In this document: in pieces, positions 21,674 through 55,640 of the stretch
Layout: each line of letters opens with the position of its first letter
Position numbering within the stretch: position 1 is the stretch's first letter
DNA from: Candidatus Sulfotelmatobacter sp.
Lineage (GTDB): Bacteria > Eisenbacteria > RBG-16-71-46
Direction of reading: 5' to 3'
Assembly: GCA_035498555.1 (NCBI GenBank)
Contig: DATKAB010000161.1
Location: forward strand, 2,794 to 66,793
Length of the DNA stretch: 64,000 nt
Position numbers and translations under genes: made by a program
Notes under the pieces: generated by a model
Seen by the model: only the letters and a program-made list of their open reading frames with translations
Database searches by the model: none
Told to the model about the DNA's origin: nothing

Positions 21674-21809
21674 GGGGGCGGAGCCTACCCCACGGGCCGT
21701 AAGAGGAGCGAATGGATTTGCCGCGGCATGACTTAGCCCATTTCGCCGCGGTCGCGACGGTCCGCCGCTGCGCCTCCCCCGCAGGTGGCGCGAGTGTTTC
21801 GGGGCATGA

Positions 21810-41400: not shown

Positions 41401-41653
41401 ATTGCCTCCGGCCGCGAGTCCTCCGCGCGGCATCGGAATTGCGTGAACGCTGTTCAATCATGGGTGGTGCTCCGAAGATTGCAGCTGGGGGGTGGCTGCG
41501 CTTTAGGCCACAAGGCCGTGCCCGGGTTCTCGGCGGTCGTTGCCGAAACCGACGGAATGGCATGGACTTCCGCTGGCCAACCGCAATCTTCGGAGCAAGA
41601 CCCAATTCATGCGGATGTCCGTTGATTGTAAGCCACTGCCCGCCCACCCACCA

Positions 41654-42499
41654 ATGTTGCGATCGCGACCGGCGAAGCTAGCGCTGATCGCGTTGGGCGG
41701 CCTGTTCCTGCTGGCCGCATGTCCCACCTTTGCCGACGAGGATTCGCTCGGCGTCGCTCCCGACACCATCGACGCTCTGCCGAGCGTGGTGCTGACCTCG
41801 CCCGACTCGGGACAGGTCCTTCCGGCGGTGAGCCAGCCGTTCCGAGCCGGGGAATCGCTGCGATTCTCGGTCCAGTACGGCATCATCCACGCCGGATCGG
41901 CGTGGCTGGAGGTCGCGAGCGCGACCATGCCCGACGGGCGGCCGGGATTCCAGCTCACGGCGCGCGCCGAGTCGAACTCGTTCTTCAGTCATTTCTACAA
42001 GGTCCGGAATCGGATCGAGTCGCTGTGGGATCGCGATGGCCGGTTCAGCTGGCGCTACAGCGAAGATCGCCACGAAGGGAAGTACAAGACCAGGACCGAA
42101 ATCCGCTTCGATCCCAACCGGCACGAGGCCATCTACTCCAACGGCGACACGCTGCCGATCCCGCCCAACGTCCAGGACGCGCTCTCGGCGTTCTACTTCA
42201 CGCGTTATCAGCCGCTCCCGCTCGGCGGCAGCGTCGTGTTCGACTATCATGCGAGCCACAAGAGTCAACCGCTCGAAGTCCGCGTCATCGGGCGCGACCG
42301 AGTGGACACGCCGGCCGGCACTTTCGAATGCGTGATGGTCGAACCGCTGCTGCGCGCCGGCGGCATCTTCAAGAACAAGGGCCGCCTCGTGATCTGGCTC
42401 ACCGACGATGAACGCCGCATGCCGGTGCTGATGAAGAGCCGCGTGCTGATGGGCTCGATCAGCGTCGTGCTCCAGGAAATCCGGAACGGATCCGGATGA
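41654..42499 (+). CDS. DUF3108-family secreted protein/lipoprotein
   Basis: Signal peptide MLRSRPAKLALIALGGLFLLAAC; similarity to DUF3108 proteins is from recollection; track ATG 41540 would place the signal peptide 38 aa in. Confidence 0.55.
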   Translation: MLRSRPAKLALIALGGLFLLAACPTFADEDSLGVAPDTIDALPSVVLTSPDSGQVLPAVSQPFRAGESLRFSVQYGIIHAGSAWLEVASATMPDGRPGFQLTARAESNSFFSHFYKVRNRIESLWDRDGRFSWRYSEDRHEGKYKTRTEIRFDPNRHEAIYSNGDTLPIPPNVQDALSAFYFTRYQPLPLGGSVVFDYHASHKSQPLEVRVIGRDRVDTPAGTFECVMVEPLLRAGGIFKNKGRLVIWLTDDERRMPVLMKSRVLMGSISVVLQEIRNGSG

Positions 42500-43452
42500 G
42501 CCGCTATCCGGAGGCCGATCTCTCGCGCCTCAAGGTCGGCTCGGTCCGACAACGGCCGACGCGCGTGAAAGTCGAACAATTCGCGAAGCCGTTGCCGAGC
42601 GGCGCCGCGGCCGCGCTGCTCGCGGCGTTGCCCGATCAGCTGGCGGCGCGCGCCCTGCGCGAGGCGGTTGAACGCATGGTCGCTGCGCATCGCGCCGCCC
42701 GGCCGGTGCTGGCGATGTGCGGTGGGCACGTGGTCAAGGTCGGGGTTTCGCCCTGCCTCATCGAGCTGATGGAGCGCCGCGTGGTCACCCACCTCGCACT
42801 CAACGGCGCCGCGGCGATCCACGATGTGGAGATCGCCCGGGACGGCGCGACCTCGGAGGACGTCGAGGCGCATCTGCACTCCGGCACCTTTGGCATGGTG
42901 GACGAGACCGGCGACTTCATGAATGCCGCGGCGCTCGAAGGGCGCTCGCGCCGGGAGGGCCTCGGCGAATGCTGGGGGCGGGCGCTGGTCGAAGCCTCGG
43001 CACCCCATCTGCGCGCCAGCCTGCTCGGGCGCGCCTGGCAGCTCGGCGTGCCGGTCACCGTCCACGTCGCGATCGGGACCGACACGATTCACCATCACCC
43101 CAGGGCCGACGGCGCGGCGCTCGGGGAAGGTTCGCTTCGCGACTTTCGCATTCTCGCCGCCTCGCTCGCCGAAGCCCGCGGATCGGTGGCGCTCAATATC
43201 GGCTCGGCGGTGATCCTGCCCGAGGTCTATCTCAAGGCTCTGGCGGTGGCTCGCAATCTGGGCGCAGACCTCTCCGGTCTCACCACCGTCAACTTCGACC
43301 AGATCCAGCACTACCGCCCACGCGTCAACGTGGTCGAACGCCCGACCCGGGGCGAGGGGAGCCGGGGGATCGCTCTGACCGGCCATCACGAGATCCTGGT
43401 GCCGCTGTTCTCGGCTGCGGTTCTGGACGCACTGGCGGCCCCGCAGCCTTGA
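42496..43452 (+). CDS. hypothetical protein (weakly deoxyhypusine-synthase-like/Rossmann-like), ATGA-coupled to DUF3108 gene
   Basis: Intact 318-aa ORF with GC3 skew typical of coding; no confident family assignment (motifs LAMCGGHVVKVG, VAIGTDTIHHHP). Confidence 0.45.
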   Translation: MSRYPEADLSRLKVGSVRQRPTRVKVEQFAKPLPSGAAAALLAALPDQLAARALREAVERMVAAHRAARPVLAMCGGHVVKVGVSPCLIELMERRVVTHLALNGAAAIHDVEIARDGATSEDVEAHLHSGTFGMVDETGDFMNAAALEGRSRREGLGECWGRALVEASAPHLRASLLGRAWQLGVPVTVHVAIGTDTIHHHPRADGAALGEGSLRDFRILAASLAEARGSVALNIGSAVILPEVYLKALAVARNLGADLSGLTTVNFDQIQHYRPRVNVVERPTRGEGSRGIALTGHHEILVPLFSAAVLDALAAPQP

Positions 43453-43558: not shown

Positions 43559-43788
43559 TCCGCCTGCAATTCCCTCGATTTACGGCAGTTCCCGATTGCG
43601 GTCGGAGGTCTCCCGAGACGCCATTTGCTACTTCCTGGGACGGGTTCTGAGTGATTTGACCCTTCCTCTGGGTGGGTAACACGCCCCCAGGCTTCGCGTC
43701 CGGTGACCGCTTCGACCCGTCCCTCGACAGGGCGGGCTCGGTCGTTCCCTCGCGAAGCACGACGGGCCGCAAGCGTTCGGGAGTCGAC

Positions 43789-44541
43789 TTGATCTCCAGA
43801 TTCATCTCGCGTTCGTTCCTACCGCTGGTGCTCGTCCTCTCCTTGGCGGCGCCCGCGCTTGCGGACCTCGGCTCGGCCGACTCCACTTCGATGGACTGGA
43901 GCCGCGTGCCCGAGTACCGCATCGTTCCCGGCGACCTGCTGCGCTTCAATTTCGGACCGTTGCTGTTCAACTATCAGGATCTCCTTCGCGAGGCCCGGGT
44001 CCGGCCCGACGGGCGCATCTCGGTCTACCCGGTGGGCGAGGTGCTGGCCGCGGGCCGCACCGTGCAGGAGCTGCAGACCGCGGTCCTCAACATGATGGCG
44101 GCCGAGTACAAGAACCCGCGGGTGTCGATCGAGCTGGCCGACGTCGCCGGCAACAAGGTCCATGTGATGGGACAGGTCAAGTCGCCGGGCTCCTATCCGG
44201 TGCAGCCCTTCATGACGGTCAGCCAGGCGATCGCCGCCGCCGGGGGATTCGCGGATGACGCGGCACGCAACAGCATCCTGCTGGTGCATCGCGATGGAGC
44301 GCATACCGTGCTGGTGGCGCGCATCCGCATGGATCGCATCATCCGCCAGGCCGCCTTCGGCGAGGATCTCCAGCTCTCCCGGTTCGACCTCGTGATCGTG
44401 CCGCGCTCGGCGATCGGCAACATCGACATCTTCCTGCGTCAGTTCTTCGGTGACGCTGGCGTCGCGTTCAACACCTCGATCCTGGGCTGGGAACTCTTCC
44501 ACCTCGACCGCGTCTTCTTCATCGGCAATACGAGTCACTGA
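43789..44541 (+). CDS. polysaccharide export protein, Wza/KpsD family (Poly_export + SLBB)
   Basis: TTG start then signal peptide ISRFISRSFLPLVLVLSLAAPALA; Poly_export core YRIVPGDLLRFNF...NKVHVMGQVKSPGSY and SLBB-like C-terminus. Confidence 0.8.
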   Translation: MISRFISRSFLPLVLVLSLAAPALADLGSADSTSMDWSRVPEYRIVPGDLLRFNFGPLLFNYQDLLREARVRPDGRISVYPVGEVLAAGRTVQELQTAVLNMMAAEYKNPRVSIELADVAGNKVHVMGQVKSPGSYPVQPFMTVSQAIAAAGGFADDAARNSILLVHRDGAHTVLVARIRMDRIIRQAAFGEDLQLSRFDLVIVPRSAIGNIDIFLRQFFGDAGVAFNTSILGWELFHLDRVFFIGNTSH

Positions 44542-45953
44542 TGAATGCTCCGATTCAGGAAGCTCCGATCTCCGCCCCGCGGCAATCCACCGCGCGCGAA
44601 TTCGTCGCCATTCTCTTCCGGCGCCGCGCGCTGATTCTCGGGCTGTTCTCGATCACCACCGCGACCGTCCTGGTCTTGGCGCTGACCACGCCCACCGAAT
44701 TCATCTCGGCGGGCCGCGTTCTGGTCAAGCGGGGGGCCAAGGAGAGCCTGCTCTCGCCCTCCACCCGCATGACCGGCGACTGGGAAGAGGACATGGGAAG
44801 CGAGGTCGAGGTGGTGAAGAGCCACCCGGTGCTCCAGCGCGCGACGGAGATTCTCAAGCAGGAGGCTGGGGCGGGCCGGTCGTCGCCAAGAGTGGATCTG
44901 AAGAGTGTCGACGTCGAGGTGACGGGACGCACGAACGTCGTGGCGATCGGCTACGTGGATCGTGATCCGGAGGTGGCACGGCAGGTGTGCAGCGCGGTGG
45001 TGCGTGCCTATGTGGAGTTCCGCGAGGCCGACTATCGACTCGTCTACCCGTCCAACTTCTTCGAAGGCGAGATGAAGCAGGCGCAGAAGGACCTCGACTA
45101 CTGGATCGAAATGCGCCGCAGCTTCTCGAACACCTCGGGAGTCGTAGACCTCGAGCATCAGAAGAGCAGCTATATCGACCAGCAGGGCGTGCTCCGGCAG
45201 CGCAAGGACGAGGTCGAAGCCGATCTCGCCGAAGCCAACATGATGTTGCAGAAGACCACGGAGCTGCGCGACCGCCAGAACATCGACCTTCCCACCTTCA
45301 CCTCGCTGTACAGCAACGAAACGGCGCTCGTGGACATCAAGAAACGCGTGGTGGACCAGGAGTTGGTCGTGGCCAAGCTTCGCGAGACCCTCCGCGACGA
45401 TTCGCCCGAGGTGCTGGCGGCCATGACCACGCTCGACACCCTGCGCACCATGATGCGGCGCGAGGTGGACGCGCGCGTGGCCATGAGCAAGGCGCGAGTG
45501 GACGTGCTGAATGCGCGACTCGCGGTGGTCCAGCGCGACATCAATGAAATTGACCGCATGCTTGCGGAGATGCCCGACAAGGAACGCACCCTTGCCGAGA
45601 TGGATCACAAGATCGACATGCTCAAGGCACGCTACAGCGAGATGTCCACCAACAGCGATGAGGCGCTCATCACCCAGAACACGACGCCATCCAGAAGCGT
45701 CGTCCTGCTCAGCGACGCCGGCCCCGCCACGCCACGGAACGCGCGCGACTACGTGCGCCTCGCGCTGGCGCCCGTGTTCAGCGTCGTCGTCGGAGTCGGA
45801 CTCGCCTTCTTCGTCGACGGCCTCGATCTGACGGTCCGCACCCCGAACCATGCCGAGGAGGCGATCGATCTGCCGGTGCTCGCGACGCTGACCGAACGAA
45901 AGCGCCGGCGCCGCGGCTCTCGCGAACTCACTCTGGAGACGCCCGCCGCATGA
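44541..45953 (+). CDS. polysaccharide co-polymerase / chain-length determinant (Wzz/GumC-like, no kinase domain)
   Basis: N-terminal TM (ALILGLFSITTATVLVLAL), long periplasmic coiled-coil region, C-terminal TM (LALAPVFSVVVGVGLAFFV); ATGA overlap with wza-like. Confidence 0.8.
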   Translation: MNAPIQEAPISAPRQSTAREFVAILFRRRALILGLFSITTATVLVLALTTPTEFISAGRVLVKRGAKESLLSPSTRMTGDWEEDMGSEVEVVKSHPVLQRATEILKQEAGAGRSSPRVDLKSVDVEVTGRTNVVAIGYVDRDPEVARQVCSAVVRAYVEFREADYRLVYPSNFFEGEMKQAQKDLDYWIEMRRSFSNTSGVVDLEHQKSSYIDQQGVLRQRKDEVEADLAEANMMLQKTTELRDRQNIDLPTFTSLYSNETALVDIKKRVVDQELVVAKLRETLRDDSPEVLAAMTTLDTLRTMMRREVDARVAMSKARVDVLNARLAVVQRDINEIDRMLAEMPDKERTLAEMDHKIDMLKARYSEMSTNSDEALITQNTTPSRSVVLLSDAGPATPRNARDYVRLALAPVFSVVVGVGLAFFVDGLDLTVRTPNHAEEAIDLPVLATLTERKRRRRGSRELTLETPAA

Positions 45954-46726
45954 CCCGGATCTTCGACGCCCTCAAGAAGGCTCGCGGCGGAGGCGCCCCG
46001 ACCGAGGTCATGCCGCCGGCCGCGCCCGCACATTCCTCCTCGATCCACGCCGTCATGAATCGCGGTGCGGCCGCCGTCTCGGCGGCACGCCACTCATTCG
46101 ACCGCGCGGACCTGATACCCATCGGACCGGTCGCGCCGATGGACGAGACCGTCGCGCGCGAGATGTCCACGCTCCGCGTCATCCTCGAGAGCTCGCTCAC
46201 CGAGCGCCTTCCCCGCTCGGTCATGCTCACCAGTTCTCAGGCGGGGGAGGGCACGACCACGGTCACGCTTCAGTTCGCACAGACCCTGGTCGCCGAGGCC
46301 GCGCACCGCGTCCTCATCCTCGACGCCAACCCGCGCTTGCGTTCACCCTTCTACGAGGCGGCCATTGACGCGATGCGGGCCGGCGAGGGACGCGGCCGGG
46401 CCGCGATGGACCTCCTCTCGCTCTCGGATTGCGTGCGTCGTTTCGGGCCAATGAATGTGGCCGCGATCCGCGACCTGCTCGAGACCGTGAGCGCCGGCTA
46501 CGACTGGGTACTGGTGGATTCGCCGGCCCTGCTCGAATCGCCGGACACCGCGCCGCTCGCAGCACAGTTCGACGCGGTGGTGGTGGTGGTGCAGGCGGGC
46601 AGGACCAAGCGCCCGGTGCTGGTGCGGGCCACCGATCTGCTTCGCCGCTCCGGCGCCAACGTGGTGGGCACGGTGCTCAATCGCCGGCGTCTGGAGATTC
46701 CGGACTTCATCTACCGCCGGATCTAA
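45950..46726 (+). CDS. BY-kinase/MinD-like P-loop protein with degenerate Walker A (pseudo-kinase candidate)
   Basis: VMLTSSQAGEGTTTV (Lys of GEGKS/T replaced by Thr), A' box VLILDAN (DxD to DxN), Walker B WVLVDSP, no C-terminal Tyr cluster. Confidence 0.7.
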   Translation: MTRIFDALKKARGGGAPTEVMPPAAPAHSSSIHAVMNRGAAAVSAARHSFDRADLIPIGPVAPMDETVAREMSTLRVILESSLTERLPRSVMLTSSQAGEGTTTVTLQFAQTLVAEAAHRVLILDANPRLRSPFYEAAIDAMRAGEGRGRAAMDLLSLSDCVRRFGPMNVAAIRDLLETVSAGYDWVLVDSPALLESPDTAPLAAQFDAVVVVVQAGRTKRPVLVRATDLLRRSGANVVGTVLNRRRLEIPDFIYRRI

Positions 46727-46732
46727 TCGCTC

Positions 46733-47929
46733 ATGCCGACGACCGTCCGCCGGCGAGCGGGGAACTCGGCTGCCCTTTCCGCATCGATGGCAATCGACGG
46801 CCGGCTGGCCGAAGCGCTGGAACATGCCGCGTCCTGGCTTCCGGATTCCTTGGCCATGGTATTGGGCGGGAGCCACGCCTCGGGCGAGGCGGTCTGGATT
46901 CGTACCGTCAGGGGCGAGGTGTGCCTCTCGGACATCGATCTCTACGCGGTGTTCGCCGCCGAGCCGGAGCGGGCCGCCAGCGCCGATCGTGCCGCCTCTG
47001 CGATGCCCGGCTTGGAGCTGCGGCTCGCGCAGCTTGGATTCCTCGGGCCGCTCGAACTCGGGTTGCACACGCGGAGCGAATGGGAACGTCTTCCCGCGCG
47101 GCCCGCGACGCTGGAGCTCAGGCGCCATGGCCGGGTGATCCACGGCGACGAGTCCGCGCGCGAGTGGCTGCCGGACTACCGGCCTGGCGACGTGCCCGCC
47201 GAGGAAATCCTGCTGCTGCTCGAGAATCGGGGGTTCGAGCTGCTCAAGGCGCGTTGGCCGCTGCGCTCCGATGATCCTTTCGCGGCCCTGCGCCGCCGGC
47301 ATTCGGTCTACAAGACGGCGCTCGATCTGGCCGCGGTTGCGGACCTGCGCTCGGGTCGCTGGGAAGACGGCGCCGAGGCGCGCGTGCGAGTCGCCCGGGA
47401 TCTGGCGTCTCGCGCGGTCGAGGAACCGCCGTGGGACTCGGCGCTCGCCTGGCGGCGAGGCGTGGTTCCCGACGACGACGAAGCGGAACGCGACTGGTGG
47501 CGGACCTCGCGAGCCTGGGTTCGGGAATGGCGCTCCACCGCCGTCGGGACGGCGCAGGGGCTCGAGTTCGACGAGATCGCGCTTCGCGCGGCGCGGCGGG
47601 CCCGCTTGCGGCGCCGCCTTCGGCTCGCGCTGCGACCCGGGCCGCGCGCCGGACGCCGAGCCCCGGCGGTGTCCCGCCTGCGCTTTGCGGTTCCGGGCAC
47701 ACCCCAGCATCGGCTGAATGCCTCGGCAGCGGCGCTGCTCGCGGCGCTGGTGGAACTCGATACGTCATCGGCGCGGCGAGCTGAGATCGAACGGCGACTG
47801 GCTCGCGTCCTTGCGCGGCTCGGCGTGGTCCCGGCCGGTCTCGAGGTCGGTCGCGCCGCACGCGGGCTGATCGCCGCCTGGGAGAGCTGGATCCTCGAGG
47901 TTCCGCGCGAAACGGGAGCCGGCTCGTGA
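46733..47929 (+). CDS. Pol-beta-superfamily nucleotidyltransferase-fold protein of unknown function
   Basis: hG[GS] ... [DE]h[DE]h signature: LAMVLGGSHASGEAVW...GEVCLSDIDLYAVF; Arg-rich helical C-terminal domain; 398 aa (start possibly 46787). Confidence 0.6.
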   Translation: MPTTVRRRAGNSAALSASMAIDGRLAEALEHAASWLPDSLAMVLGGSHASGEAVWIRTVRGEVCLSDIDLYAVFAAEPERAASADRAASAMPGLELRLAQLGFLGPLELGLHTRSEWERLPARPATLELRRHGRVIHGDESAREWLPDYRPGDVPAEEILLLLENRGFELLKARWPLRSDDPFAALRRRHSVYKTALDLAAVADLRSGRWEDGAEARVRVARDLASRAVEEPPWDSALAWRRGVVPDDDEAERDWWRTSRAWVREWRSTAVGTAQGLEFDEIALRAARRARLRRRLRLALRPGPRAGRRAPAVSRLRFAVPGTPQHRLNASAAALLAALVELDTSSARRAEIERRLARVLARLGVVPAGLEVGRAARGLIAAWESWILEVPRETGAGS

Positions 47930-49074
47930 AGGGGCGCATGGTGGTGCTGCTGGTGGACGCGCTCGGCTGGCGGCTCGCCAGCGAGAGCCCGGGATTCGCG
48001 ACCGGACTCGTTCATCGCCGGCGCCTCGAGACCATCCTCGGATTTTCCTCGGGGGCGCTCCCCACGCTGTTCACCGGCCGTACTCCCGATCAGCACGGCC
48101 GCTGGCTCATGTACCGGCGGGCGAACGGCTCGACTCCCTTTCGGGGATTCGGCGCGCTGGCTCTGCTGCCCGCGCGGCTGCGCGGCAGCCACCGGCTTGG
48201 AAGCTGGCTCAGGCGCGAGGTCGAGCGGCGCGGGGTGCATGGTTACTTCCACCTTTACGAGGTGCCGCGCGAGCTGCTCGAGCGGTTCGATCTGCCCGAG
48301 CGGGAAGACATCTTCGCTCCCGGTTCGCTGCCGATGGATTCGCTGTGGGACACCCTTGAGCGCCGTCGCATTTCCTGGCGCGGCTGGAATTGGCGCACGT
48401 CCGAAAGTGGCAATCTCGAGGCGCTGGCCGCGCGCGCCGCGATGGGGGACGAGCGGCTGCTGTTCTGCTACACGGCCGACCTCGATGCGCTGCTCCATCG
48501 GGACGGTTCGCGAGCCGGGGCGGTTCGCGAGCGCATGGCGCGTTACGACGGCTGGCTCAGCAGTCTCGCCGAGAAAGCCGAGGCGCGAGGTGAGCGGCTC
48601 TGGCTCTACCTGCTCTCCGACCATGGCATGGTGGACGTGGGGGAGACGCGCGATGTGATGGGGGCGCTGCAAGGCCTCGCGGTCCGATGGCCTGCGGACT
48701 ACCTGGCGTTCTTCGACTCGACCATGGCGCGGTTCTGGTGGCGCTCGCCCGCCGCGCGCGAGCCGGTGGTTCGCGCCCTGAATGCGCTGGGAGGCGGCCG
48801 CTGGCTCACTCGCGAGGAGCGCGCAGCGCAACGCACTCCCCCGGACTTCCGGGCCTGGGGCGAAGACGTGTTCCTGCTCGATCCCGGCGTGCTGATGGTG
48901 CCGTCATTCATGGGGCGCGGGCCACTCGCGGCCATGCACGGCTACGATCCCGCCCATCCCGACATGGCGGCGCTGCTGTGGTCGAACCGGCCGATTCCCG
49001 AATCGGTGCGGCATCTCACCGATGTGCGCGCGTTCCTCGAATCGGAGCTCGAGGCGCTGGAGGCCTCGGCGTGA
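47926..49074 (+). CDS. alkaline-phosphatase-superfamily enzyme (type I phosphodiesterase / nucleotide pyrophosphatase-like), cytoplasmic
   Basis: VVLLVDALGW N-terminal metal-site region, LLSDHGM motif, no TM/signal; ATGA overlap with upstream NTase-fold gene. Confidence 0.65.
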   Translation: MKGRMVVLLVDALGWRLASESPGFATGLVHRRRLETILGFSSGALPTLFTGRTPDQHGRWLMYRRANGSTPFRGFGALALLPARLRGSHRLGSWLRREVERRGVHGYFHLYEVPRELLERFDLPEREDIFAPGSLPMDSLWDTLERRRISWRGWNWRTSESGNLEALAARAAMGDERLLFCYTADLDALLHRDGSRAGAVRERMARYDGWLSSLAEKAEARGERLWLYLLSDHGMVDVGETRDVMGALQGLAVRWPADYLAFFDSTMARFWWRSPAAREPVVRALNALGGGRWLTREERAAQRTPPDFRAWGEDVFLLDPGVLMVPSFMGRGPLAAMHGYDPAHPDMAALLWSNRPIPESVRHLTDVRAFLESELEALEASA

Positions 49075-50651
49075 GGCGCGGCGAGATCGCACACACCGTT
49101 TCACGCGGCGCGTTCTACCTGACCCTCGAGAAGGCCGCGGCGCTGTTCTCGGGCGTCGCCTACTTCGCGTTGCTGCTCCGCTGGCTCGGCCCGACCAAGT
49201 ACGGAATCATGACGCTGGCACTGTCGTTCGCCGGACTAGCCACCATGATGAACGGGAACTTCGAGGTGTTCCTCGAGCGCTACGCCGCCGAGTACCAGGC
49301 GCACGGCCGGCTGCGCACGCTGCGCCGCGCGCAATTCCATGCCATGGGACTCAAGCTGGCGCTCGGCGCGGTGGCCAGTCTGGTCCTGGTCCTTGGCGCG
49401 CCCTTCATCGCCGTCCAATTCCACACCCCCGAGCTGTCCTACCTCCTGCCGATGCTGAGCCTGATGGTGCTGCTCGAGGGCTTCGCGTCCACCGGGCGCG
49501 CGACGCTGTACGGACTCCAGCAGTTCCGCTGGATGAGCGTGGTGGCGCTCGCGTTCCACATCGCGAAGACCATCATGGTGGGGCTCCTGTGGTGGCTCAA
49601 GCAGGGTCTGCCGGCGCTCGCGATCGGGCTCACCACGCTGGCGGTGCTGCAGGGCGCGGTCAGCGCCGCGATTCCCATGTGGATGCTGCGCCGCGCGCGC
49701 GACCCCGAGGGCGCGCCGCCCGGACTGAGCGGCAAACCGCTCACGCGCGCGATCCTGGGCTATTGCCTGCCGCTGCTCGGCGCACGGGTCACCTTCCTCT
49801 CGGGGCAGAATCTCGGCAAGATCGTGCTCGGCAAACTCTTCGACACCACCCTGCTCGGATTCTTCTCGTTCGCCTATCAGACCGTGGAGCGCTTCGTCGA
49901 GATGATCTTCGCGATTCCCTCGTCATTGCTGCCCTCGCTCACCCATCTGGTGGCGCGGGAAGAGCGCGATCGGCTGCGCTTCGTGTTCGATCAATCGTTG
50001 CGGATCATTCAGGTGGTGGCGCTGGTGCTGAGCTGCGGCATGGCCGTGTTCGCACGCGAGATCACGCTGGTGATCGGAAGCCCACTGTTCGAGCCCGCGA
50101 TCCCGATGCTTCGCATCATGGCCCTGGTCCCGATCGCGCGCACCGCTCAGCAGCCGCTGACCATGCTGTTCCAGGCGCTGCGCCTGCCCGGAACCGTGCT
50201 GGTGCTGGCGATCATCAAGTTCGTAACCGAGTTTGGCTGCTACTTCGCGCTGGTCCCCACGGTGGGCATCGCCGGGGCGGCCTGGGCGAACCTGGCCGGC
50301 GCCATCGTGTCCTACATCGTGGCGATGATCCTTCTCGATCAACTGGTGCCCGAAGGACGGGACGAGCGCACTCGCACCACCTGGCTTGGACTCGCCTGCT
50401 TCGCTCCGTTCCTGCTGCTCGGTCTCGTGATCGGCGATCACTTCGGCCATCTCGGCTCGACGCTCGCGCGACTCGCCCTGGTGCCGCCCACGCTCGCGCT
50501 CACGCTGGCGGTCGGCCTGGTGCGCCCGGCGGACTTCGAGCGGCTCAGTTCGTTCCCGCTGGAATCGACGTGGATGAGGCGGACGCGCGATCTGGTGGTC
50601 GCAGCCGCTCAGCGCACCGCGAACGCGCTGGTGCCGCGGAGGCTGCTGTGA
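49071..50651 (+). CDS. Wzx-type polysaccharide flippase (MOP superfamily)
   Basis: GTGA overlap with upstream; about 12-14 predicted TM helices, Polysacc_synt-like N-terminus (YLTLEKAAALFSGVAYFALLLRWLGPTKYG). Confidence 0.75.
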   Translation: MRRGEIAHTVSRGAFYLTLEKAAALFSGVAYFALLLRWLGPTKYGIMTLALSFAGLATMMNGNFEVFLERYAAEYQAHGRLRTLRRAQFHAMGLKLALGAVASLVLVLGAPFIAVQFHTPELSYLLPMLSLMVLLEGFASTGRATLYGLQQFRWMSVVALAFHIAKTIMVGLLWWLKQGLPALAIGLTTLAVLQGAVSAAIPMWMLRRARDPEGAPPGLSGKPLTRAILGYCLPLLGARVTFLSGQNLGKIVLGKLFDTTLLGFFSFAYQTVERFVEMIFAIPSSLLPSLTHLVAREERDRLRFVFDQSLRIIQVVALVLSCGMAVFAREITLVIGSPLFEPAIPMLRIMALVPIARTAQQPLTMLFQALRLPGTVLVLAIIKFVTEFGCYFALVPTVGIAGAAWANLAGAIVSYIVAMILLDQLVPEGRDERTRTTWLGLACFAPFLLLGLVIGDHFGHLGSTLARLALVPPTLALTLAVGLVRPADFERLSSFPLESTWMRRTRDLVVAAAQRTANALVPRRLL

Positions 50652-51352
50652 GTGCGCCGCGTGTACTGGTGATCGTCCCCGCACACAACGAGGCGGACAG
50701 CCTGCCGGCGACCCTGGCCGAGATCCGGGCGCGGGCGGACTGGTGCGACGTGCTGGTGGTGGATGACGGCTCGCGCGACCGCACCTCGGCGGTGGCCAGG
50801 GAGGCGGGGATACCGGTGGTGCGGCACGCCGTCAACCTGGGCGTGGGTGGGGCGCTCCAGACCGGATTCCGCTATGCCGTTGCCCATGGCTACGACATCG
50901 GAGTCCAGCTCGATGCCGACGGCCAGCACGATCCCGCGTTTCTGCGTGACCTGGTCGCCCCGGTGGCCGACGGTCGCTGCGACCTGAGCATTGGCTCGCG
51001 CTACGTGGCCCGTTCAGGCTACCGTGCTCCGGCGACGCGCCGGCTCGGCATGCTCATGTTCTCCGGAATCGTGCGTCTCGTGTTGCATCAGAGGATCGCC
51101 GATACCACTTCGGGATTTCGCGCCTATGGGCGCAGGGTCATGGAGGTGTGCCAGCACGACTTCCCCACGGATTTCCCGGACGCGCCGCTCCTGATCGCGC
51201 TGGCGCTGCGGCATTTCCGGCTGCTGGAAGTGCCGGTCGAAATGCGCGAGCGTCGCGCCGGACAATCGTTCTACACCCTGGGAAAGTCATTGTACTACCC
51301 GTACAAGAATCTGCTCGCGTCACTCATGGCCTGGCTGCAACGCCCGGCCTGA
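50648..51352 (+). CDS. GT2 polyprenyl-phosphate glycosyltransferase (Dpm1/GtrB/ArnC-like)
   Basis: GTGA overlap; VLVIVPAHNEADSLP, DxD (VLVVDDGSRD), QLDADGQHDP motif typical of ArnC/GtrB/DPM1. Confidence 0.8.
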   Translation: MSAPRVLVIVPAHNEADSLPATLAEIRARADWCDVLVVDDGSRDRTSAVAREAGIPVVRHAVNLGVGGALQTGFRYAVAHGYDIGVQLDADGQHDPAFLRDLVAPVADGRCDLSIGSRYVARSGYRAPATRRLGMLMFSGIVRLVLHQRIADTTSGFRAYGRRVMEVCQHDFPTDFPDAPLLIALALRHFRLLEVPVEMRERRAGQSFYTLGKSLYYPYKNLLASLMAWLQRPA

Positions 51353-51368
51353 TGAATCGGAGGCAACC

Positions 51369-51743
51369 ATGTTGTTCCTGTCGCGCACTCAGCTGATCGC
51401 AGCTCTGGGAGCGGTCGCGATGGCGCTCTACGTCCTCGATCTGGTTCGGCGCCGCCGGCTGTCCGAGGAGTATTCGCTGCTGTGGGTGATCGCCTCCAGC
51501 ATCATCGCGATCCTCGGATTCTGCACGCCGCTGCTGCTCTGGGTCACCCAGCTGCTCGGCATCCTCGGCGCGGCCTCGACGGTGTTCGCCTTCGGTCTGG
51601 CGTTCGCGATGGCGATGCTGCTGTACCTCTCGGTCAAGATGTCACGGCTCGGGCAGCAGAATCAGGCGCTCACGCAGGAACTGGCGTTGATGCGTCACGA
51701 GCTGGAGCGGCGTGGCGCACCGGAACGGACGGGGGACGCGTGA
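51369..51743 (+). CDS. DUF2304-family small membrane protein
   Basis: 124 aa, 3 TM helices plus C-terminal coiled coil (LGQQNQALTQELALMRHELERR); commonly paired with GT2 enzymes. Confidence 0.6.
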   Translation: MLFLSRTQLIAALGAVAMALYVLDLVRRRRLSEEYSLLWVIASSIIAILGFCTPLLLWVTQLLGILGAASTVFAFGLAFAMAMLLYLSVKMSRLGQQNQALTQELALMRHELERRGAPERTGDA

Positions 51744-52750
51744 GCCAGCGACTCAAGCTGATCATCGGCATCGCGGTGTCGGTGGTGTGCGTCTGGGTGT
51801 CGATGCACGATGTGAAATTGAGCGAAGTCTGGAACGCGCTGCGCCATGCCAATTACCTCGGGTTCGCCGCGGTGATGGCCCTGACCCTGCTGGGATTCTG
51901 GATTCGCGCGGTGCGCTGGCGCTCGCTGATCGCCGCCCCGCGGCCGATCTCGACCGATAGCCTGTTCTCGGCCACGATGATCGGTTTCATGGCCAACAAC
52001 GTGCTGCCCTTCCGGCTCGGCGAGTTCGTTCGCCCCTGGGCGCTCGCCCGCCGAGAAAAGCTGTCGAAGACCACGCTGCTGGCGACCGTGGTGGTGGAGC
52101 GCGCGGTCGACATGCTGACCCTGCTCGGCATCCTCGGGATCTCGCTGCTGGTGCACCCCGCTTCGGTGTCGGCCCGTACCGAAGCCGGACGGATGACCCG
52201 GGCCGGCGCCGGCGTGCTGGTATTCATGTGCGTGGGGCTGACCGCGTTCGTCATCGCGCTGGAGTGGTCGCCACGCCTGGCGCACGGGGTGGTGCACTGG
52301 CTGACCCGCCCGTTGCCGGAGACGGTCCGGCGGCGCGTGAGCGCCATGCTCACCCATTTCTTCGAAGGACTCGGGCTGTTCCGCGATCTGCCGCGGCTGG
52401 CCTGGGTGTTCGCGCTGTCGTTCCTGATGTTCGGCGTCTTCGCGCTCGGGCTGAGCGTGTGCATGTGGGCGCTCAGCCTGTCGGTCCCCTGGTACGCCGG
52501 GCTGATCATGCTGGTGATCACCGCCATTGGCATCATGGTGCCGGCGGCACCCGGATACATCGGAACGCTCAATCTGGCGTGCATCGCCGGCCTCGCTCTG
52601 TTTGGCGTGAGCAAGGATCTGGCGGCGCCATTCTCATGGTTCTACTGGGCGAGCCAGTGGCTGCCGGTCACCGGGGTGGGGCTGTTCTACCTCCAGCGTG
52701 AAGGGCTCTCGCTCCGCTCGCTGGGACAAGCCCAGGAGGCGGCGGCGTGA
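51740..52750 (+). CDS. flippase-like membrane protein (UPF0104 / lysyl-PG-synthase TM-domain family)
   Basis: GTGA overlap; 8 TM helices, RxxR and NNVLPFRLGEFVRP motif resembling PF03706. Confidence 0.6.
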   Translation: MSQRLKLIIGIAVSVVCVWVSMHDVKLSEVWNALRHANYLGFAAVMALTLLGFWIRAVRWRSLIAAPRPISTDSLFSATMIGFMANNVLPFRLGEFVRPWALARREKLSKTTLLATVVVERAVDMLTLLGILGISLLVHPASVSARTEAGRMTRAGAGVLVFMCVGLTAFVIALEWSPRLAHGVVHWLTRPLPETVRRRVSAMLTHFFEGLGLFRDLPRLAWVFALSFLMFGVFALGLSVCMWALSLSVPWYAGLIMLVITAIGIMVPAAPGYIGTLNLACIAGLALFGVSKDLAAPFSWFYWASQWLPVTGVGLFYLQREGLSLRSLGQAQEAAA

Positions 52751-52758
52751 GCCCGGCT

Positions 52759-53967
52759 TCACGCCCGGAAGTGTCCGACGATCTTCCGAATCGCGGCCGC
52801 GACGTCGTCGACGTCGCGCTCGGTCATGGTGGGGAAGAGCGGCAGCGAGATCGCGCGCCGGTAGGCGTCTTCGGCCACCGGGAACTGTCCTTCGCGCACC
52901 CCAAGCGAATCGCGGAAGTGGGGGTGGAGGTGGATCGGGATGAAGTGCACCGAGCTGCCGATGTTCTCGGCGCGCAGCTCGGTGATGAAGCGCGCGCGAT
53001 CGATGCGCAGCCGCTCCAGTTCGAGTCCGATCGGGTAGAGATGCCAGGCGTGCGTGGCGCCCGGGCGCGTGACCGGGCGGCGGATCTCGGGCAGCTCCGA
53101 CAGCAGCGTGTCGTAGCGCGCCACCCGTTCGCGGCGCAGGCGCTGGAGCTCGTCGAAGCGCTCGAGCTGCCCGAGGCCGATCGCCGCCAGCACATCGCTC
53201 AGGTTGTACTTGTAGCCGGGTGCGGTGACCTCGTAGTACCACGAGCCGGTGTCGGTGTAACGCTTCCAGGCGTCGCGGTTCATGCCGTGGAGCGAGAGCA
53301 GTCCGAGCCGCTCGGCCAGCTCGTCGTCGTCGGTCACGGCCGCCCCGCCTTCGCCGGTGGTGAGATTCTTGGTGGCGTAGAACGAGAACGCAGTGACGGT
53401 CGCAAGCGAGCCGATCGGTTTTCCGCGCCAGGCCGCGCCCAGCGCGTGTGCGGCGTCCTCCACCACCGGAGCCTCGATCCGCTCCGCGAGCGGCAGGATG
53501 CGGTCGTAGTCGCAAGGATGCCCGGCGTAGTCCACCGGCAGCACCGCGCGCGTACGTGGGGTGAGCGCGTCCTCGAGCGCCGCGGGGTTCATGCACAGCG
53601 TGTCGGGTTCGACGTCCACCAGCACCGCGCGAGCGCCGACGTGCTCGATCACGTTCACGCACGCCGCGAAGGTGTACGTCGAGGTGATCACCTCGTCCCC
53701 GTGGCCGACGCCGAGCGCCACCAGCGACAGGTGCAGCGCCCCGGTGGCCGAGTTGAACGCCAGGCCGTGTCGAGCACCGGCGAGCTTCGCGACCCGCTCG
53801 GCCAGCTCGATGCTCTTCTTGCCGGTGGTGATCCAGCCCGAATCGAGGGTCTCGAGCACCAGCTGCTTCTCGCGCTCCCCGATCGCCGGAATGGCGAGCG
53901 GCAGGAAGCGCTCCCGGACCGGGCGTCCTCCCTGCGAGGCCAGGGGCTCCGGCGGTGCCGTCTTCAC
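52759..53967 (-). CDS. DegT/DnrJ/EryC1/StrS-family PLP-dependent sugar aminotransferase
   Basis: SATGALHLSL, PLP-lysine FSFYATKNLTTGEGG, DAAHALG; convergent with upstream operon, divergent from wzx2. Confidence 0.9.
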   Translation of the reverse strand: MKTAPPEPLASQGGRPVRERFLPLAIPAIGEREKQLVLETLDSGWITTGKKSIELAERVAKLAGARHGLAFNSATGALHLSLVALGVGHGDEVITSTYTFAACVNVIEHVGARAVLVDVEPDTLCMNPAALEDALTPRTRAVLPVDYAGHPCDYDRILPLAERIEAPVVEDAAHALGAAWRGKPIGSLATVTAFSFYATKNLTTGEGGAAVTDDDELAERLGLLSLHGMNRDAWKRYTDTGSWYYEVTAPGYKYNLSDVLAAIGLGQLERFDELQRLRRERVARYDTLLSELPEIRRPVTRPGATHAWHLYPIGLELERLRIDRARFITELRAENIGSSVHFIPIHLHPHFRDSLGVREGQFPVAEDAYRRAISLPLFPTMTERDVDDVAAAIRKIVGHFRA

Positions 53968-54110
53968 GAGGCTCGGGATCCGGTTCGCATCAGGGCAAAT
54001 AGTCTAGGCGAGCGCTCGGAATCTCACCAGCGGCGACGGCGCGCGCGCGCGCCCGCCGCGGCGGCGAAGGCTCGAACGCCTTCCGCCGCGTCCCGCTGAC
54101 CGAGCGCGCC

Positions 54111-55640
54111 ATGCACCCCCGAAAGCTGGTTCGCGACTCGATCGGATACGCCACCTCGCAGTTCATCGTCCGCGCCGCGATGATCGTGCGCACGGTGCTG
54201 GCCGCGCGCTGGCTGGGGCCTCAGGCCTATGGCGCGTGGAATGCCCTCCAGCTGATGATGGACTACGGCACTCTTGCCCCGCTCGGAACTCAGCAGGGCC
54301 TCGATCAGCGCGTGCCGCGCGCGATCGTGGACGGCGATCCGGTGCGTCTTGCCCGAATCAAGCGCGCCGGCTTCACCAATATCCTCCTTCTTACCGGGTT
54401 GTTCTGCGCGACGGGCATCGTCTACCTCTCGCGCTCGAACGGCAGGATCATGTCCTTCTGGGCGGGGGCCGGCATGCTGGTGGCGATGGCCGTCGTGCTC
54501 CTCATCAATTGGGCCAATTACCACACGACGTTGCTCCGCTCGCACGGCAACATCGGCGCGGTGAGCCGATGGTTCTTCGTCCAGGGCATGGTGGGCGCGG
54601 TACTCGGCCTCGCCCTGATTCCATGGCAGGGAGCCTGGGGCCTGCTGTGGGGCTGGCTGCTGGGAACGCTGGTGTCGTTCGCCTGGACCCGGTGGGACGC
54701 TCGGAAACTCGCGCCGCTCCGGCCACTGATCGGCTCCGAAAACGGCGACCTCCTGCGCGTGGGCTTCCCGCTGTTCTTCTTTCTCGGCTCGGCGCTGGTG
54801 ATGCGCAGCCTCGATCGGCTCATCATTCTTCGCTTTCTCGGCACGCGCGAGCTGGGTTACTACAGCCTGGCGGTGACCGCGCTGACGCTGCTCATGTACG
54901 TGCCCGACTCGGCCACCTACGTGCTCTACCCCCGCTTGCTCCAGGGCTACCGGGCGGGCGGGGACCAGCCCGAGGCGATCCGCGACCACGTCATCGTCGC
55001 GCTCACCGTGCTGAGCACGCTGACGCCGGCTCTCGGTGGGCTGGCATTTCTGGCCGCGCGCGATCTGATCGGTGCGGTGCTGCCCAACTACATCGCCGGC
55101 GCCACCGCGGTCCGGGTGCTGTGCTTCGGCGCGGCGGCGCTGACGCTTTCGAATCTCGCCTCGATCGTGCTGATGACCCTCGGCCGCCAAGTGTGGCTGA
55201 TTCCCATCGCCGTGCTGTTCACGGCCGCCTGCGGCTTCGCCGATCTCGAGGTGCTGCGGCGCGGCTACGGGATCAGCGGAGTCGCCTGGGCGACGCTCGC
55301 CACCTACGTGGCGAGCGGCATGGTGGTGCTGGCGCTGGCCCTGGCCGCGCTGGGTGCCGGCTGGCTCGGCACGCTCCGACGCCTGTTCGGGTGCGCGTGG
55401 GCGTTGCTCGCGGCGATCGGGATCGCCGTCGGGCTCGATCGGCTGCTGCCCTGGCGCAACACCACCGACGAGGCGGTCCGGCTGATTCGCGTCGGGCTCG
55501 AGTGGTCGGCATTCGCGATCAGCTATGCCCTGGCGGTGCGGCCTCTGCTGCGCGAGATCGGGCTGCGACAGGTGTTGTCGGAGTTCAATCTGCCCTTTGC
55601 CTCGCTCTTGCGCCGCGACCCCGGAGGGGCCGGAAAGTGA
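54111..55640 (+). CDS. second Wzx/MOP-superfamily polysaccharide flippase
   Basis: 509 aa, about 14 TM helices, Polysacc_synt-like N-terminus. Confidence 0.7.
   Translation: MHPRKLVRDSIGYATSQFIVRAAMIVRTVLAARWLGPQAYGAWNALQLMMDYGTLAPLGTQQGLDQRVPRAIVDGDPVRLARIKRAGFTNILLLTGLFCATGIVYLSRSNGRIMSFWAGAGMLVAMAVVLLINWANYHTTLLRSHGNIGAVSRWFFVQGMVGAVLGLALIPWQGAWGLLWGWLLGTLVSFAWTRWDARKLAPLRPLIGSENGDLLRVGFPLFFFLGSALVMRSLDRLIILRFLGTRELGYYSLAVTALTLLMYVPDSATYVLYPRLLQGYRAGGDQPEAIRDHVIVALTVLSTLTPALGGLAFLAARDLIGAVLPNYIAGATAVRVLCFGAAALTLSNLASIVLMTLGRQVWLIPIAVLFTAACGFADLEVLRRGYGISGVAWATLATYVASGMVVLALALAALGAGWLGTLRRLFGCAWALLAAIGIAVGLDRLLPWRNTTDEAVRLIRVGLEWSAFAISYALAVRPLLREIGLRQVLSEFNLPFASLLRRDPGGAGK

Follow-up and report, generated by a model that had tools for sequence, protein, structure and literature searches.

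A Pol-beta-fold nucleotidyltransferase and a cytoplasmic NPP-type phosphodiesterase form a conserved gene pair in a polysaccharide-export locus of Candidatus Eisenbacteria

Results

Two adjacent genes within a polysaccharide-export block

We analysed a 64,000-nucleotide stretch of DNA, referred to here as the window, from an assembly deposited as Candidatus Sulfotelmatobacter sp. and placed by GTDB in the Eisenbacteria (GCA_035498555.1, contig DATKAB010000161.1, positions 2,794 to 66,793 of the forward strand). Our subject is a pair of adjacent plus-strand genes inside a locus for extracellular polysaccharide (EPS). The first (NT; 46733..47929) has an ATG start and encodes a 398-aa protein which its open reading frame (ORF), its motifs, an AlphaFold (AF2) model and Foldseek comparison identify as a Pol-beta-fold nucleotidyltransferase (NTase). 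The second (PDE; 47938..49074) encodes a 378-aa phosphodiesterase of the nucleotide pyrophosphatase/phosphodiesterase (NPP) and alkaline phosphatase (AP) superfamily, recognised by a PF01663 domain. Very probably, both are catalytically competent, soluble enzymes of the cytoplasm, and together they form a coupled module of a Wzx/Wzy-type EPS system, with the gene order Wza – polysaccharide co-polymerase (PCP) – BY-kinase-like protein – NT – PDE – flippase, which is core and chromosomal in Candidatus Eisenbacteria and in several other uncultured lineages. The gene immediately upstream (45950..46726, plus strand) encodes a pseudokinase resembling bacterial tyrosine kinases (BY-kinases), and its stop codon lies 6 nucleotides before the NT start; downstream, the gene for a Wzx/MOP flippase (49071..50651, plus strand; Polysacc_synt and Polysacc_synt_3) overlaps the PDE stop by 4 nucleotides. 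These are the neighbours named in a preliminary, sequence-only reading of the window, which placed the pair between a pseudo-BY-kinase and a Wzx flippase.

The same reading had proposed two plus-strand ORFs at 46733..47929 (398 aa) and 47926..49074 (382 aa), and both are present with coding-like third-position GC (0.81 for NT and 0.84 for PDE). Two antisense ORFs which run across them (46343..47710 and 47308..48831) were rejected as genes and are shadows of the high GC content. The further proposal, that the pair is coupled through an ATGA overlap, needs correction. At the junction (cggctcGTGAaggggcgcATGgtg) the overlap reads GTGA (47926-47929), with a GTG at 47926 serving as the start of the 382-aa form. 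The alternative ATG at 47938 is preceded by GAAGGGG and yields a 378-aa product, in agreement with PDE homologues (376-383 aa) and with a database protein, 99% identical, that is also called at this length. Because of these alternative starts the two genes either overlap by 4 nucleotides or lie 8 nucleotides apart, and in homologous loci the junction ranges from a 34-nucleotide overlap to a 39-nucleotide gap. Base composition is uniform across the window, with no compositional anomaly, and the locus is a core envelope-polysaccharide locus and not an island.

NT has a complete nucleotidyltransferase active site

Searches with the NT sequence returned nothing from Pfam at E ≤ 1 or from NCBIfam, and the PDB sequences, all of them searched with a profile, yielded only spurious bromodomain matches, so that assigning NT to a known NTase family by sequence was abandoned. 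None of its 141 close homologues, which are about 400 aa long and, where named, come mostly from Candidatus Eisenbacteria, carries a Pfam domain. A profile search of 1.84 billion cluster representatives (50% identity clustering) recovered a wider family of 1,288 relatives at E ≤ 1e-3, including 632 at E ≤ 1e-10, and this family is modelled in neither Pfam nor NCBIfam. By their C-terminal motifs, the full-length relatives were sorted into subgroups named X, A, B, C and D, with the Eisenbacteria proteins (Eis) as the sixth.

The AF2 model of NT (pLDDT 91.4, pTM 0.90) consists of an alpha/beta domain (residues ~20-150, with a beta-strand core at 41-113) and an all-helical domain that extends to residue 390. 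An Arg-rich helical C-terminal domain had been predicted for this protein, and it is borne out by the model, which is all-helical over 150-398, and by the presence of 37 arginines among the 199 residues of the C-terminal half. When the model was compared with the PDB using Foldseek, the top matches were ANT(4') (E = 3.5e-4) and AadA/ANT(3'')(9) (~1e-3), aminoglycoside O-nucleotidyltransferases (ANTs), and the match probability was 1.00 to ANT, AadA and KNTase. These were followed by KNTase (~3e-3 to 4e-3), ANT(4')-IIb (~4e-3 to 1e-2) and the Hailong protein HalB (7e-3), and the template modelling (TM) scores of these best matches are only 0.24-0.49. CdnG (E = 0.43) and DncV (E = 1.6) both have TM scores below 0.2, and FAM46 appears only at E > 0.4. 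GlnE and GlnD are absent from the 50 best matches, and DrrA is found only at E = 1.1 (TM 0.25).

The motifs quoted in the sequence-only reading, GGSHASGEAVW and CLSDIDLYAVF, are present and contain the core of the active site. In an alignment of 45 homologues, residues G46, S47, S66, D67 and D69 are invariant, and E108, which lies within PLELGL on a strand of hEh pattern 39 residues past D69, is at least 90% conserved. The same level of conservation is seen at E158, E164, N165, R166, H190, K194, R289, H326 and R327 in the helical part. Across the six subgroups the motif glycine is conserved in 100% of sequences, the serine in 98% and D67 in 100%, with D or E at position 69; the full set of universal positions is G46, S47, D67, D/E69, G138, N165, R166, K/R194, D198, R217, W266 and P324. 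The carboxylate spacing agrees with that of AadA (D47, D49 and E87). We conclude that NT is a Pol-beta-fold nucleotidyltransferase whose catalytic set is complete, including the third carboxylate. The loss of catalytic carboxylates expected of an inactive scaffold is not seen among the close homologues, in which D67 and D69 are invariant and E108 nearly so. The third carboxylate, for which a check had been suggested, is retained as E or D in five of the six subgroups (Eis, X, B, C and D) and is absent in group A. The group A proteins (L059 and L064-L143 in our locus numbering; more than 458 metagenome loci) keep the GS, D-x-[DE], NR, K and D positions, and may be catalytically altered or inactive.

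PDE is a cytoplasmic NPP-type enzyme with a serine nucleophile

PDE matches PF01663 over residues 44-239 (E = 2.2e-10; 41.1 bits against a cut-off of 23). It has 712 database matches at E ≤ 0.001, the best 120 of which, as listed, are 61-99% identical and carry PF01663 in all but three cases. The AF2 model (pLDDT 90.5) is most similar to the Xanthomonas NPP (Xac NPP; E = 4.4e-16, TM 0.65) and then to ENPP6 and ENPP5 (E ~1e-15, TM ~0.65), and the solved relatives listed include ENPP1 with cGAMP and pApG and ENPP3 with UDP-GlcNAc. Enzymes of this fold hydrolyse phosphodiester and pyrophosphate bonds, those of nucleotide diesters among them. The fold assignments made earlier from motifs (VVLLVDALGW and SDHGM in the case of PDE) are thus upheld for both proteins, by AF2, Foldseek and motifs for NT and by PF01663 and Foldseek for PDE.

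Seven residues (D7, S37, D183, H187, D228, H229 and H334) never vary among 33 homologues and are conserved throughout the six subgroups; in an alignment they correspond to the Xac NPP motifs DxxxH, SDHGM and HGYD. The nucleophile is a serine (in GFSSGAL), as opposed to the threonine of the NPPs. In the motif GFSSGALPTLFTG, the position of the asparagine that follows the nucleophile is occupied by Ala/Gly, in the register of the NPP motif T-F-P-N. A helical insert of about 80 residues (~55-135) contains many invariant arginines. The protein begins directly at beta-strand 1 (MVVLLVDALG) and its maximum 19-residue Kyte-Doolittle hydropathy is 0.98, which indicates a cytoplasmic protein with no signal; neither a hydrophobic segment nor a signal-like N-terminus was found in either NT or PDE. 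PDE is a cytoplasmic enzyme of the NPP/AP fold with a full metal-ligand set and a serine nucleophile.

NT and PDE are co-conserved across lineages and gene orders

Co-conservation was scanned using one genome per GTDB species, which gave 53 NT loci, mostly titled Candidatus Eisenbacteria; 12 are labelled only 'uncultured bacterium' or 'bacterium' and a few have other phylum names. Within Eisenbacteria, where gene order was read from the tblastn table, a 13-gene block keeps its order in all loci of sufficient length, and PDE follows NT without exception, with Wzx next. Adjacency inside the Eisenbacteria is phylum-level synteny, and alone it is not specific evidence. Seven loci (L013, L014, L024, L029, L038, L039 and L051, the last too short and covering only part of it) carry the same block at Eisenbacteria-level identity, and the metagenome-assembled genomes (MAGs) that they come from are titled Udaeobacter, Saccharimonadaceae, Limnocylindria, Terriglobales, Methylomirabilota, Acidiferrales and Verrucomicrobiia; the deposited taxonomy of these seven MAGs is probably wrong.

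Beyond Eisenbacteria, subgroups X, B, C and D share the order Wza – PCP/Wzz – AAA_22 (ExeA-like) ATPase – ParA/BY-kinase-like protein – NT – PDE. The gene after PDE encodes a flippase in Eisenbacteria, X, B and D and an LPG_synthase_TM protein in C. These loci have a GC content of 48-63%, and their PDE proteins are 31-40% identical to that of the window. The PDE partners of all subgroups align with it from end to end and keep the catalytic residues.

Group A, whose few named members are mostly Candidatus Acidoferrales, has a different order: FemAB – DegT – PDE – family 4 glycosyltransferase (GT4; stp2-like) – NT – DUF362 – GT4 (stp1-like) – Wzy_C. Its FemAB protein scores 366 with TIGR03019, whose cut-off is 260; stp1, stp2 and O-ligase are the best-matching models for their respective proteins. 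Among 80 group A metagenome loci, 40 have at least 3 kb upstream of NT, and PDE is present in 33 of these, mostly ~1.3 kb from NT with a single GT4 gene between them. In the other seven, no PDE lies within reach; the exceptions comprise a clade with a heptose-type cassette abutting NT and the rearranged locus L141 along with L143, which has the same upstream genes. The cassette directly upstream of NT contains an epimerase, a Rossmann NTP_transferase, a GHMP kinase, a 226-aa ORF and a HAD protein (L066:4084-7908, L083, L087 and L133), and resembles a GDP-heptose-type pathway, with HAD not detected in L133. The HAD phosphatase, which is directly upstream of NT in L066 and L141, was considered as a substitute for PDE and rejected, since in the L066 clade it is part of the cassette, and the cassette is also found between PDE – GT4 and NT in L083 and, without a detected HAD, in L133, two loci that retain PDE. 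A DegT aminotransferase gene is found near the pair in Eisenbacteria and in several group A loci.

The linkage of NT and PDE survives both rearrangement and deep divergence, and therefore indicates a functional coupling and not synteny alone. The concern that the pair might never be co-conserved elsewhere is answered by its occurrence across lineages in two gene orders. Neither gene had been thought a standard EPS-locus component. This is correct for textbook loci and incorrect within loci of the Wza – PCP – BY-kinase-like kind, of which the pair is a standard core component. The joint occurrence of NT and PDE in polysaccharide-export clusters of several uncultured soil lineages makes it probable that the two carry out a single step, so far unrecognised, in the synthesis or control of a surface polysaccharide. 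A literature search on an NTase/PF01663 pair in EPS loci, on EPS in Eisenbacteria and on the function of the GSU2086 family, members of which are encoded in the block, found no paper linking them.

A lysine-less BY-kinase-like protein precedes NT

The BY-kinase-like (BYK-like) protein of the window has the Walker A sequence GEGTTT, without lysine, and the tail EIPDFIYRRI with a single tyrosine. It gives sub-threshold matches to TIGR01007, TIGR03018 and ParA/AAA_31. In all 50 of its Eisenbacteria orthologues, GEG[TV][ST]T replaces GxGK[ST] and the protein ends in EIPxF[IL]YRR[ILV], in which the tyrosine is single and invariant. The Walker A lysine is also missing in subgroups X, C and D and is present in B. 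A common tail, IPEF[IL]Y[KR]R[IV] with tyrosine at -4, is shared by L001-L056, L058, L060, L061, L063, L144 and L145, and every copy begins with MSxIFDALRKAE. The protein keeps Walker A'/B-like motifs, and NCBIfam BY-kinase models score far below their cut-offs. In group A loci the BY-kinases are canonical, with GxGK[ST] as Walker A and with Tyr-rich tails, and their genes lie several kilobases upstream of NT and not adjacent to it. BY pseudokinases have been documented in EcpK and HfsB and are proposed to be scaffolds, with the mechanism of cycling left open (PMC12004946).

Evolutionary rates were compared as mean Kimura distances over 22 complete Eisenbacteria loci. NT (0.94), the BYK-like protein (0.89), PCP (0.89) and Wza (0.74) form a faster set, and Wzx (0.61), PDE (0.50), the flippase-like protein (0.49), DegT (0.36), the family 2 glycosyltransferase (GT2; 0.34) and the GSU2086-family protein (0.33) a slower one. 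Mirror-tree partial correlations on the same loci are weak (NT with the GSU2086-family protein 0.49, BYK-like 0.31, DegT 0.30 and PDE 0.26) and single out no partner.

Other genes of the block and the window

The syntenic block begins with a DUF3108 gene (41540..42499, plus strand; PF11306, 2.3e-40), which is syntenic in related loci too. It is followed on the same strand by the gene for the GSU2086-family protein, of unassigned function (42496..43452; NF052581, 380.5 bits against a cut-off of 250). No other member of the block is as well conserved as this protein (66-81% identity between Eisenbacteria loci), for which searches found neither a solved homologue nor any informative literature. 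In other subgroups, ORFs close to it in size (313-322 aa) occupy the same position (L058:2763-3704, L063:1-899, L144:753-1721 and L145:3-968) and are candidate counterparts by size and place only; those of L058 and L063 have a weak ArgZ-like_C_2nd Pfam match.

Next come a Wza/OPX outer-membrane polysaccharide export protein (43672..44541, plus strand; Poly_export, SLBB and SLBB_2, with TIGR03027 as the best NCBIfam model) and a PCP-2-type co-polymerase or chain-length determinant (44541..45953, plus strand). The latter has two transmembrane segments, with hydrophobic peaks at residues ~30 and ~407, and matches the EpsF (TIGR03017) and XrtA (TIGR03007) models, both below cut-off. An ExeA-like AAA_22 ATPase gene lies between PCP and BYK-like in X, B, C and D (L058:6262-7113, L061:4048-4905, L063:6333-7175, L144:5403-6260 and L145:4274-5122), as it does in XrtA/PEP-CTERM loci, and is absent from the Eisenbacteria block and the window. 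The XrtA/PEP-CTERM models are the best matches for several of these proteins, all below cut-off (TIGR03027, 90.5 against 180; TIGR03007, 66 against 279; TIGR03018, 56 against 231), and the scanned ORFs of the window include no exosortase. We therefore rejected membership of the XrtA/PEP-CTERM class, there being neither an equivalog-level match nor an exosortase among those ORFs, and regard the EPS system of the window as a distant relative of such loci.

Beyond the Wzx flippase, the plus strand encodes a GT2 polyprenyl-phosphate glycosyltransferase of the PpgS/ArnC/DPM1-like kind (50648..51352; Glycos_transf_2, 3.7e-26; PpgS, 2.9e-29, sub-cut-off), its partner, a small DUF2304 membrane protein (51369..51743; PF10066, 7.6e-21), and a flippase-like membrane protein (LPG_synthase_TM; 51740..52750; PF03706, 5.7e-49, with TIGR00374 above cut-off). 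A DegT/ArnB/PseC-type sugar aminotransferase gene lies on the minus strand (52759..53967; third-position GC 0.91; NCBIfam ArnB 3.9e-112 and PseC 4.2e-109, both sub-cut-off), as DegT does in all homologous loci. A 450-aa plus-strand ORF over the same region (52747..54099) was rejected as the shadow of this gene, given the third-position GC (0.91) and NCBIfam match (1e-112) of the minus-strand frame. A second MOP-family flippase-like protein follows (54111..55640, plus strand; Polysacc_synt, 9.2e-10). We identified neither an initiating phosphoglycosyltransferase nor a Wzy polymerase within the block of the window. Between 55525 and 63112 there are long plus-strand ORFs without any Pfam match (312, 667, 768, and 706 or 959 aa). 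In subgroups B, C and D, an ORF of ~855-903 aa, likewise without a Pfam match, lies downstream of the GT2 or flippase-like genes (L063:12464-15079, L144:10632-13199 and L145:11237-13948); its N-terminal 120 residues look strongly hydrophobic by reading alone, and it may encode a GT-C-type transferase or else a polymerase.

Upstream of the block, the plus strand carries the genes for NusA (from 29656), IF-2 (from 31109), TruB (from 34118), PNPase (from 36617) and an M16 peptidase (from 38942), and the minus strand one for an aminotransferase (from 40189). Further away are an LptF/G pair (19200-21859, minus strand) and a 2,085-aa SprA-like protein of the type IX secretion translocon family (21810-28067, plus strand), which together are consistent with an FCB-group diderm such as Eisenbacteria.

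Discussion

A proposed role for the pair and the alternatives to it

The reading that we favour, at a probability of roughly one in three, is that NT transfers a nucleoside monophosphate (NMP) to a hydroxyl on a sugar of a glycan intermediate in the cytoplasm and that PDE then processes the resulting diester. The acceptor, the nucleotide and the direction of cleavage by PDE in what follows are those that we infer, set beside the observed folds, active-site conservation and genetic coupling. NT would act like the ANTs, with D67, D69 and E108 holding two Mg2+ ions and R166, K194 and R217 of the helical domain holding the triphosphate of the nucleoside triphosphate (NTP). The NMP would pass to a hydroxyl of an intermediate containing an amino sugar, perhaps the lipid-linked repeat unit or its first sugar, at the cytoplasmic face and before flipping by Wzx. 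The sugar-O-P-O-nucleoside diester would then be the substrate of PDE, whose Ser37 would attack the phosphorus. Either the nucleoside would be expelled, leaving a phosphate on the sugar or allowing the phosphosugar to be passed to an acceptor, or the sugar would be expelled, the NMP being removed as a reset or checkpoint. We favour sequential action on one intermediate because a cytoplasmic pair that adds and removes the same group under one promoter would be futile. A glycan substrate is suggested by the base rates for glycan loci, the ANT-like fold, the position before the flippase and, in group A, the placement of the pair among FemAB, DegT, GT4 and Wzy genes. In glycan loci, enzymes of uncharacterised function usually turn out to be precursor or decoration enzymes, and the NTase-fold proteins LicD and fukutin provide a precedent for the transfer of phospho-substituents to glycans.

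Several observations weigh against this proposal. The pair stays with the export and co-polymerase module while the sets of glycosyltransferases vary by lineage, and because it tracks that module a machinery or regulatory role fits as well as decoration does. NT evolves at a rate like that of the machinery (PCP and BYK-like), and PDE at a rate like that of an enzyme. The likeness of NT to the ANTs is weak (TM 0.29-0.49, E ~1e-4 to 1e-2), with HalB scoring alike, and the group A NTs are without the third carboxylate. Finally, we know of no nucleotidylated glycan intermediate, and classical NPPs release 5'-NMP, which would merely reverse the NT reaction.

The alternative that survives best, although we consider it unlikely, is a cycle of tyrosine nucleotidylation. 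Here NT would put AMP or UMP on the tail tyrosine of the BYK-like protein, or on PCP, and PDE would remove it, in place of the autophosphorylation cycle that drives oligomer cycling of PCP-2 proteins. GlnE, GlnD and DrrA are Pol-beta-fold tyrosine nucleotidyltransferases, and the classic way to strip AMP from tyrosine uses venom NPP; GlnE and GlnD are, however, outside the 50 best Foldseek matches of NT, with DrrA at E = 1.1. The order BYK-like – NT – PDE in five deep subgroups and the 6-nucleotide gap before NT in the window fit such a cycle. So does the concurrence of an invariant tail tyrosine with loss of the Walker A lysine, in the 50 Eisenbacteria orthologues and in X, C and D, but subgroup B keeps the lysine and nevertheless has NT and PDE, and the correlation is based on very few independent evolutionary events. 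Group A can be read in both directions: its canonical BY-kinases do not adjoin NT and its NTs are without the third carboxylate, in line with the cycle, yet its pair sits among glycosyltransferase genes. The rate of change of NT equals that of PCP and BYK-like, whereas the mirror-tree correlation of NT with BYK-like (partial r = 0.31) is weak and falls below that with the GSU2086 family (0.49). No phosphatase of the low-molecular-weight protein tyrosine phosphatase or PHP type was seen in these loci. The Arg-rich insert of ~80 residues in the PDE model would suggest an enclosed, small, anionic substrate, which counts against a protein tyrosine. In its favour, one structural neighbour of NT, HalB, uses the hydroxyl of a protein tyrosine to prime synthesis (PMC13434031), and BY pseudokinases are already known, with the driver of their cycle an open question (PMC12004946).

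A less probable alternative places the pair in precursor metabolism. In this case PDE would be a phospho-sugar mutase or nucleotide-sugar pyrophosphatase, and NT would make an unusual nucleoside diphosphate (NDP)-sugar from a sugar-1-phosphate for the GT2 or DegT pathway. The AP superfamily includes phosphomutases with a Ser/Thr phospho-enzyme intermediate, and the serine nucleophile of PDE, in place of the threonine typical of NPPs, is in keeping with this, as is ENPP3 with UDP-GlcNAc among the structural matches. GT2 and DegT require an NDP-sugar, and no Rossmann-type sugar-1-phosphate nucleotidyltransferase was found among the Eisenbacteria block genes examined. Some group A loci, on the other hand, have the cassette with Rossmann NTP_transferase, GHMP kinase and HAD directly upstream of NT, the pair tracks the export module and not particular sugar genes, and no NDP-sugar maker of the Pol-beta fold is known to us.

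Slightly lower again we place a nucleotide signal, a linear or cyclic (oligo)nucleotide that would be made by NT and degraded by PDE and read by the lysine-less P-loop of the BYK-like protein or by the AAA_22 ATPase, so gating polymerisation or export. The pair adjoins P-loop proteins in five subgroups, and the solved relatives of PDE include ENPP1 with cGAMP and pApG. HalB, which has the same two-domain architecture and is among the top structural matches of NT, synthesises oligonucleotides (PMC13434031), and a cytoplasmic PF01663 protein can be a dedicated second-messenger phosphodiesterase, as AtaC is for c-di-AMP (PMC7132281). Against a signal, no receptor domain was identified, there were no PADLOC or CD-NTase matches, and in group A both genes lie among glycosyltransferases and away from the kinase; the enzymes also look constitutively co-expressed and neither has a sensory domain. 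Taking these possibilities together where they share a target, we think it rather unlikely that NT and PDE write and erase a tyrosine O-nucleotidylation mark, or a nucleotide signal, directed at the lysine-less BYK-like protein.

There is only a slim chance, in our view, that the two proteins have unrelated functions and are neighbours by inherited synteny, or, in a variant of this, that one of them is an inactive scaffold. It would account for the synteny of the whole 13-gene block within Eisenbacteria, the seven of 40 group A loci without PDE within reach and the group A NTs without a third carboxylate. However, the linkage outlasts both the rearrangement to PDE – GT4 – NT and divergence over at least six subgroups in which other neighbours change, the PDE partners of all NT subgroups keep their catalytic residues at 31-40% identity from end to end, and in both proteins strong constraint acts on the catalytic residues.

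An anti-phage defence module of CBASS or Hailong-like type inserted in the EPS locus, suggested by HalB, CdnG and DncV in the Foldseek list, is effectively refuted: PADLOC was negative for NT, PDE, BYK-like and two remote NT homologues (only two insignificant short hits), CdnG and DncV have E > 0.4 and TM < 0.2, there is no effector gene or compositional anomaly, and the genes are fixed phylum-wide in a core block by nusA-infB-truB-pnp, so that the low weight originally given to a CD-NTase-like role was justified. A modest remainder of the probability we leave to other mechanisms.

Wzx/Wzy systems are among the best-studied envelope machines, and a core NT-PDE pair has no described counterpart there. 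The family to which NT belongs has many members; throughout one candidate phylum it is fixed, and in Acidobacteriota-type loci from soil it is common. Should the favoured reading, glycan modification, be correct, it would define a new way in which abundant, uncultured bacteria of the soil obtain polysaccharides with phospho- or nucleotidyl substituents. Were the pseudokinase the target instead, this would answer the question posed in 2025 of what drives the cycling of those PCP-2 proteins that work independently of phosphorylation; assembly and disassembly of PCP-2 would be driven by ATP or NTP, polysaccharide polymerisation and export would come under a new kind of post-translational control, and PDE would be the first bacterial de-nucleotidylase of the NPP type. 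With two soluble enzymes and clear active sites, the question is open to direct tests in vitro.

Comparison with known systems

The folds of NT and PDE are already known, and the module that they form is modelled in neither Pfam nor NCBIfam and is undescribed in the literature searched. The closest structural relatives of NT, ANT(4')/KNTase and AadA (6nmk, 1kny, 6fzb and 7uy4), appear to be built alike, from an N-terminal NTase domain with GS, DxD and a third carboxylate ~40 residues on and a C-terminal helical domain with basic and acidic residues, and their acceptors are the hydroxyls of amino-sugar compounds. In contrast to these enzymes, NT has no detectable sequence similarity to them, is ~150 residues longer with an extra Arg-rich helical region, and is encoded by a core gene of a polysaccharide locus and not by a resistance gene. 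HalB (9dbj; E = 7e-3) has a KNTase-like NTase fold in common with NT, in a fold class that can use a protein tyrosine hydroxyl as acceptor and can make signalling oligonucleotides (PMC13434031). It differs from NT in its size (~210 aa), its ion-channel effector partner and its location in defence islands, while NT is without an invariant tyrosine of its own, a HalA-like partner or a PADLOC match.

PDE resembles the NPPs (Xanthomonas 2gsn/7mw8, ENPP5, ENPP6, ENPP7 and ENPP1) in its fold (TM 0.65), PF01663 domain and identical set of six metal ligands. It departs from them in being cytoplasmic, in its serine nucleophile, in the replacement of the asparagine and in the Arg-rich insert at ~55-135, with an identity of 13-16%. 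AtaC, likened to PDE here by description only, is also a soluble, single-domain, cytoplasmic PF01663 protein with a nucleotide diester substrate (PMC7132281), but it is not found in EPS loci or beside an NTase.

Other systems are similar in their logic. In GlnD/GlnE and DrrA/SidD, a Pol-beta-fold enzyme adds an NMP to a protein tyrosine and a partner hydrolase removes it, but removal there is carried out by an HD domain, by a second NTase domain or by a PP2C-like protein and not by an NPP. LicD and fukutin are NTase-fold proteins of polysaccharide or teichoic-acid loci that install phosphodiester-linked substituents. However, neither LicD nor FKRP appears among the Foldseek matches of NT, NT gave no match to PF04991, and no cytidylyltransferase forming a CDP-alcohol was seen in the Eisenbacteria block.

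The neighbourhood of NT finds its nearest parallel in EcpK/EpsV and HfsB/HfsA, where a stand-alone BYK-like protein without the Walker A lysine accompanies a PCP-2 protein without a kinase domain (PMC12004946). EcpK is without all Walker motifs and without a C-terminal tyrosine (PMC12004946), whereas the BYK-like protein described here keeps the P-loop-like GEG[TV][ST]T and the tyrosine tail. In contrast to the EcpK and HfsB systems, a BYK-like protein with the single-tyrosine tail always has NT and PDE after it.

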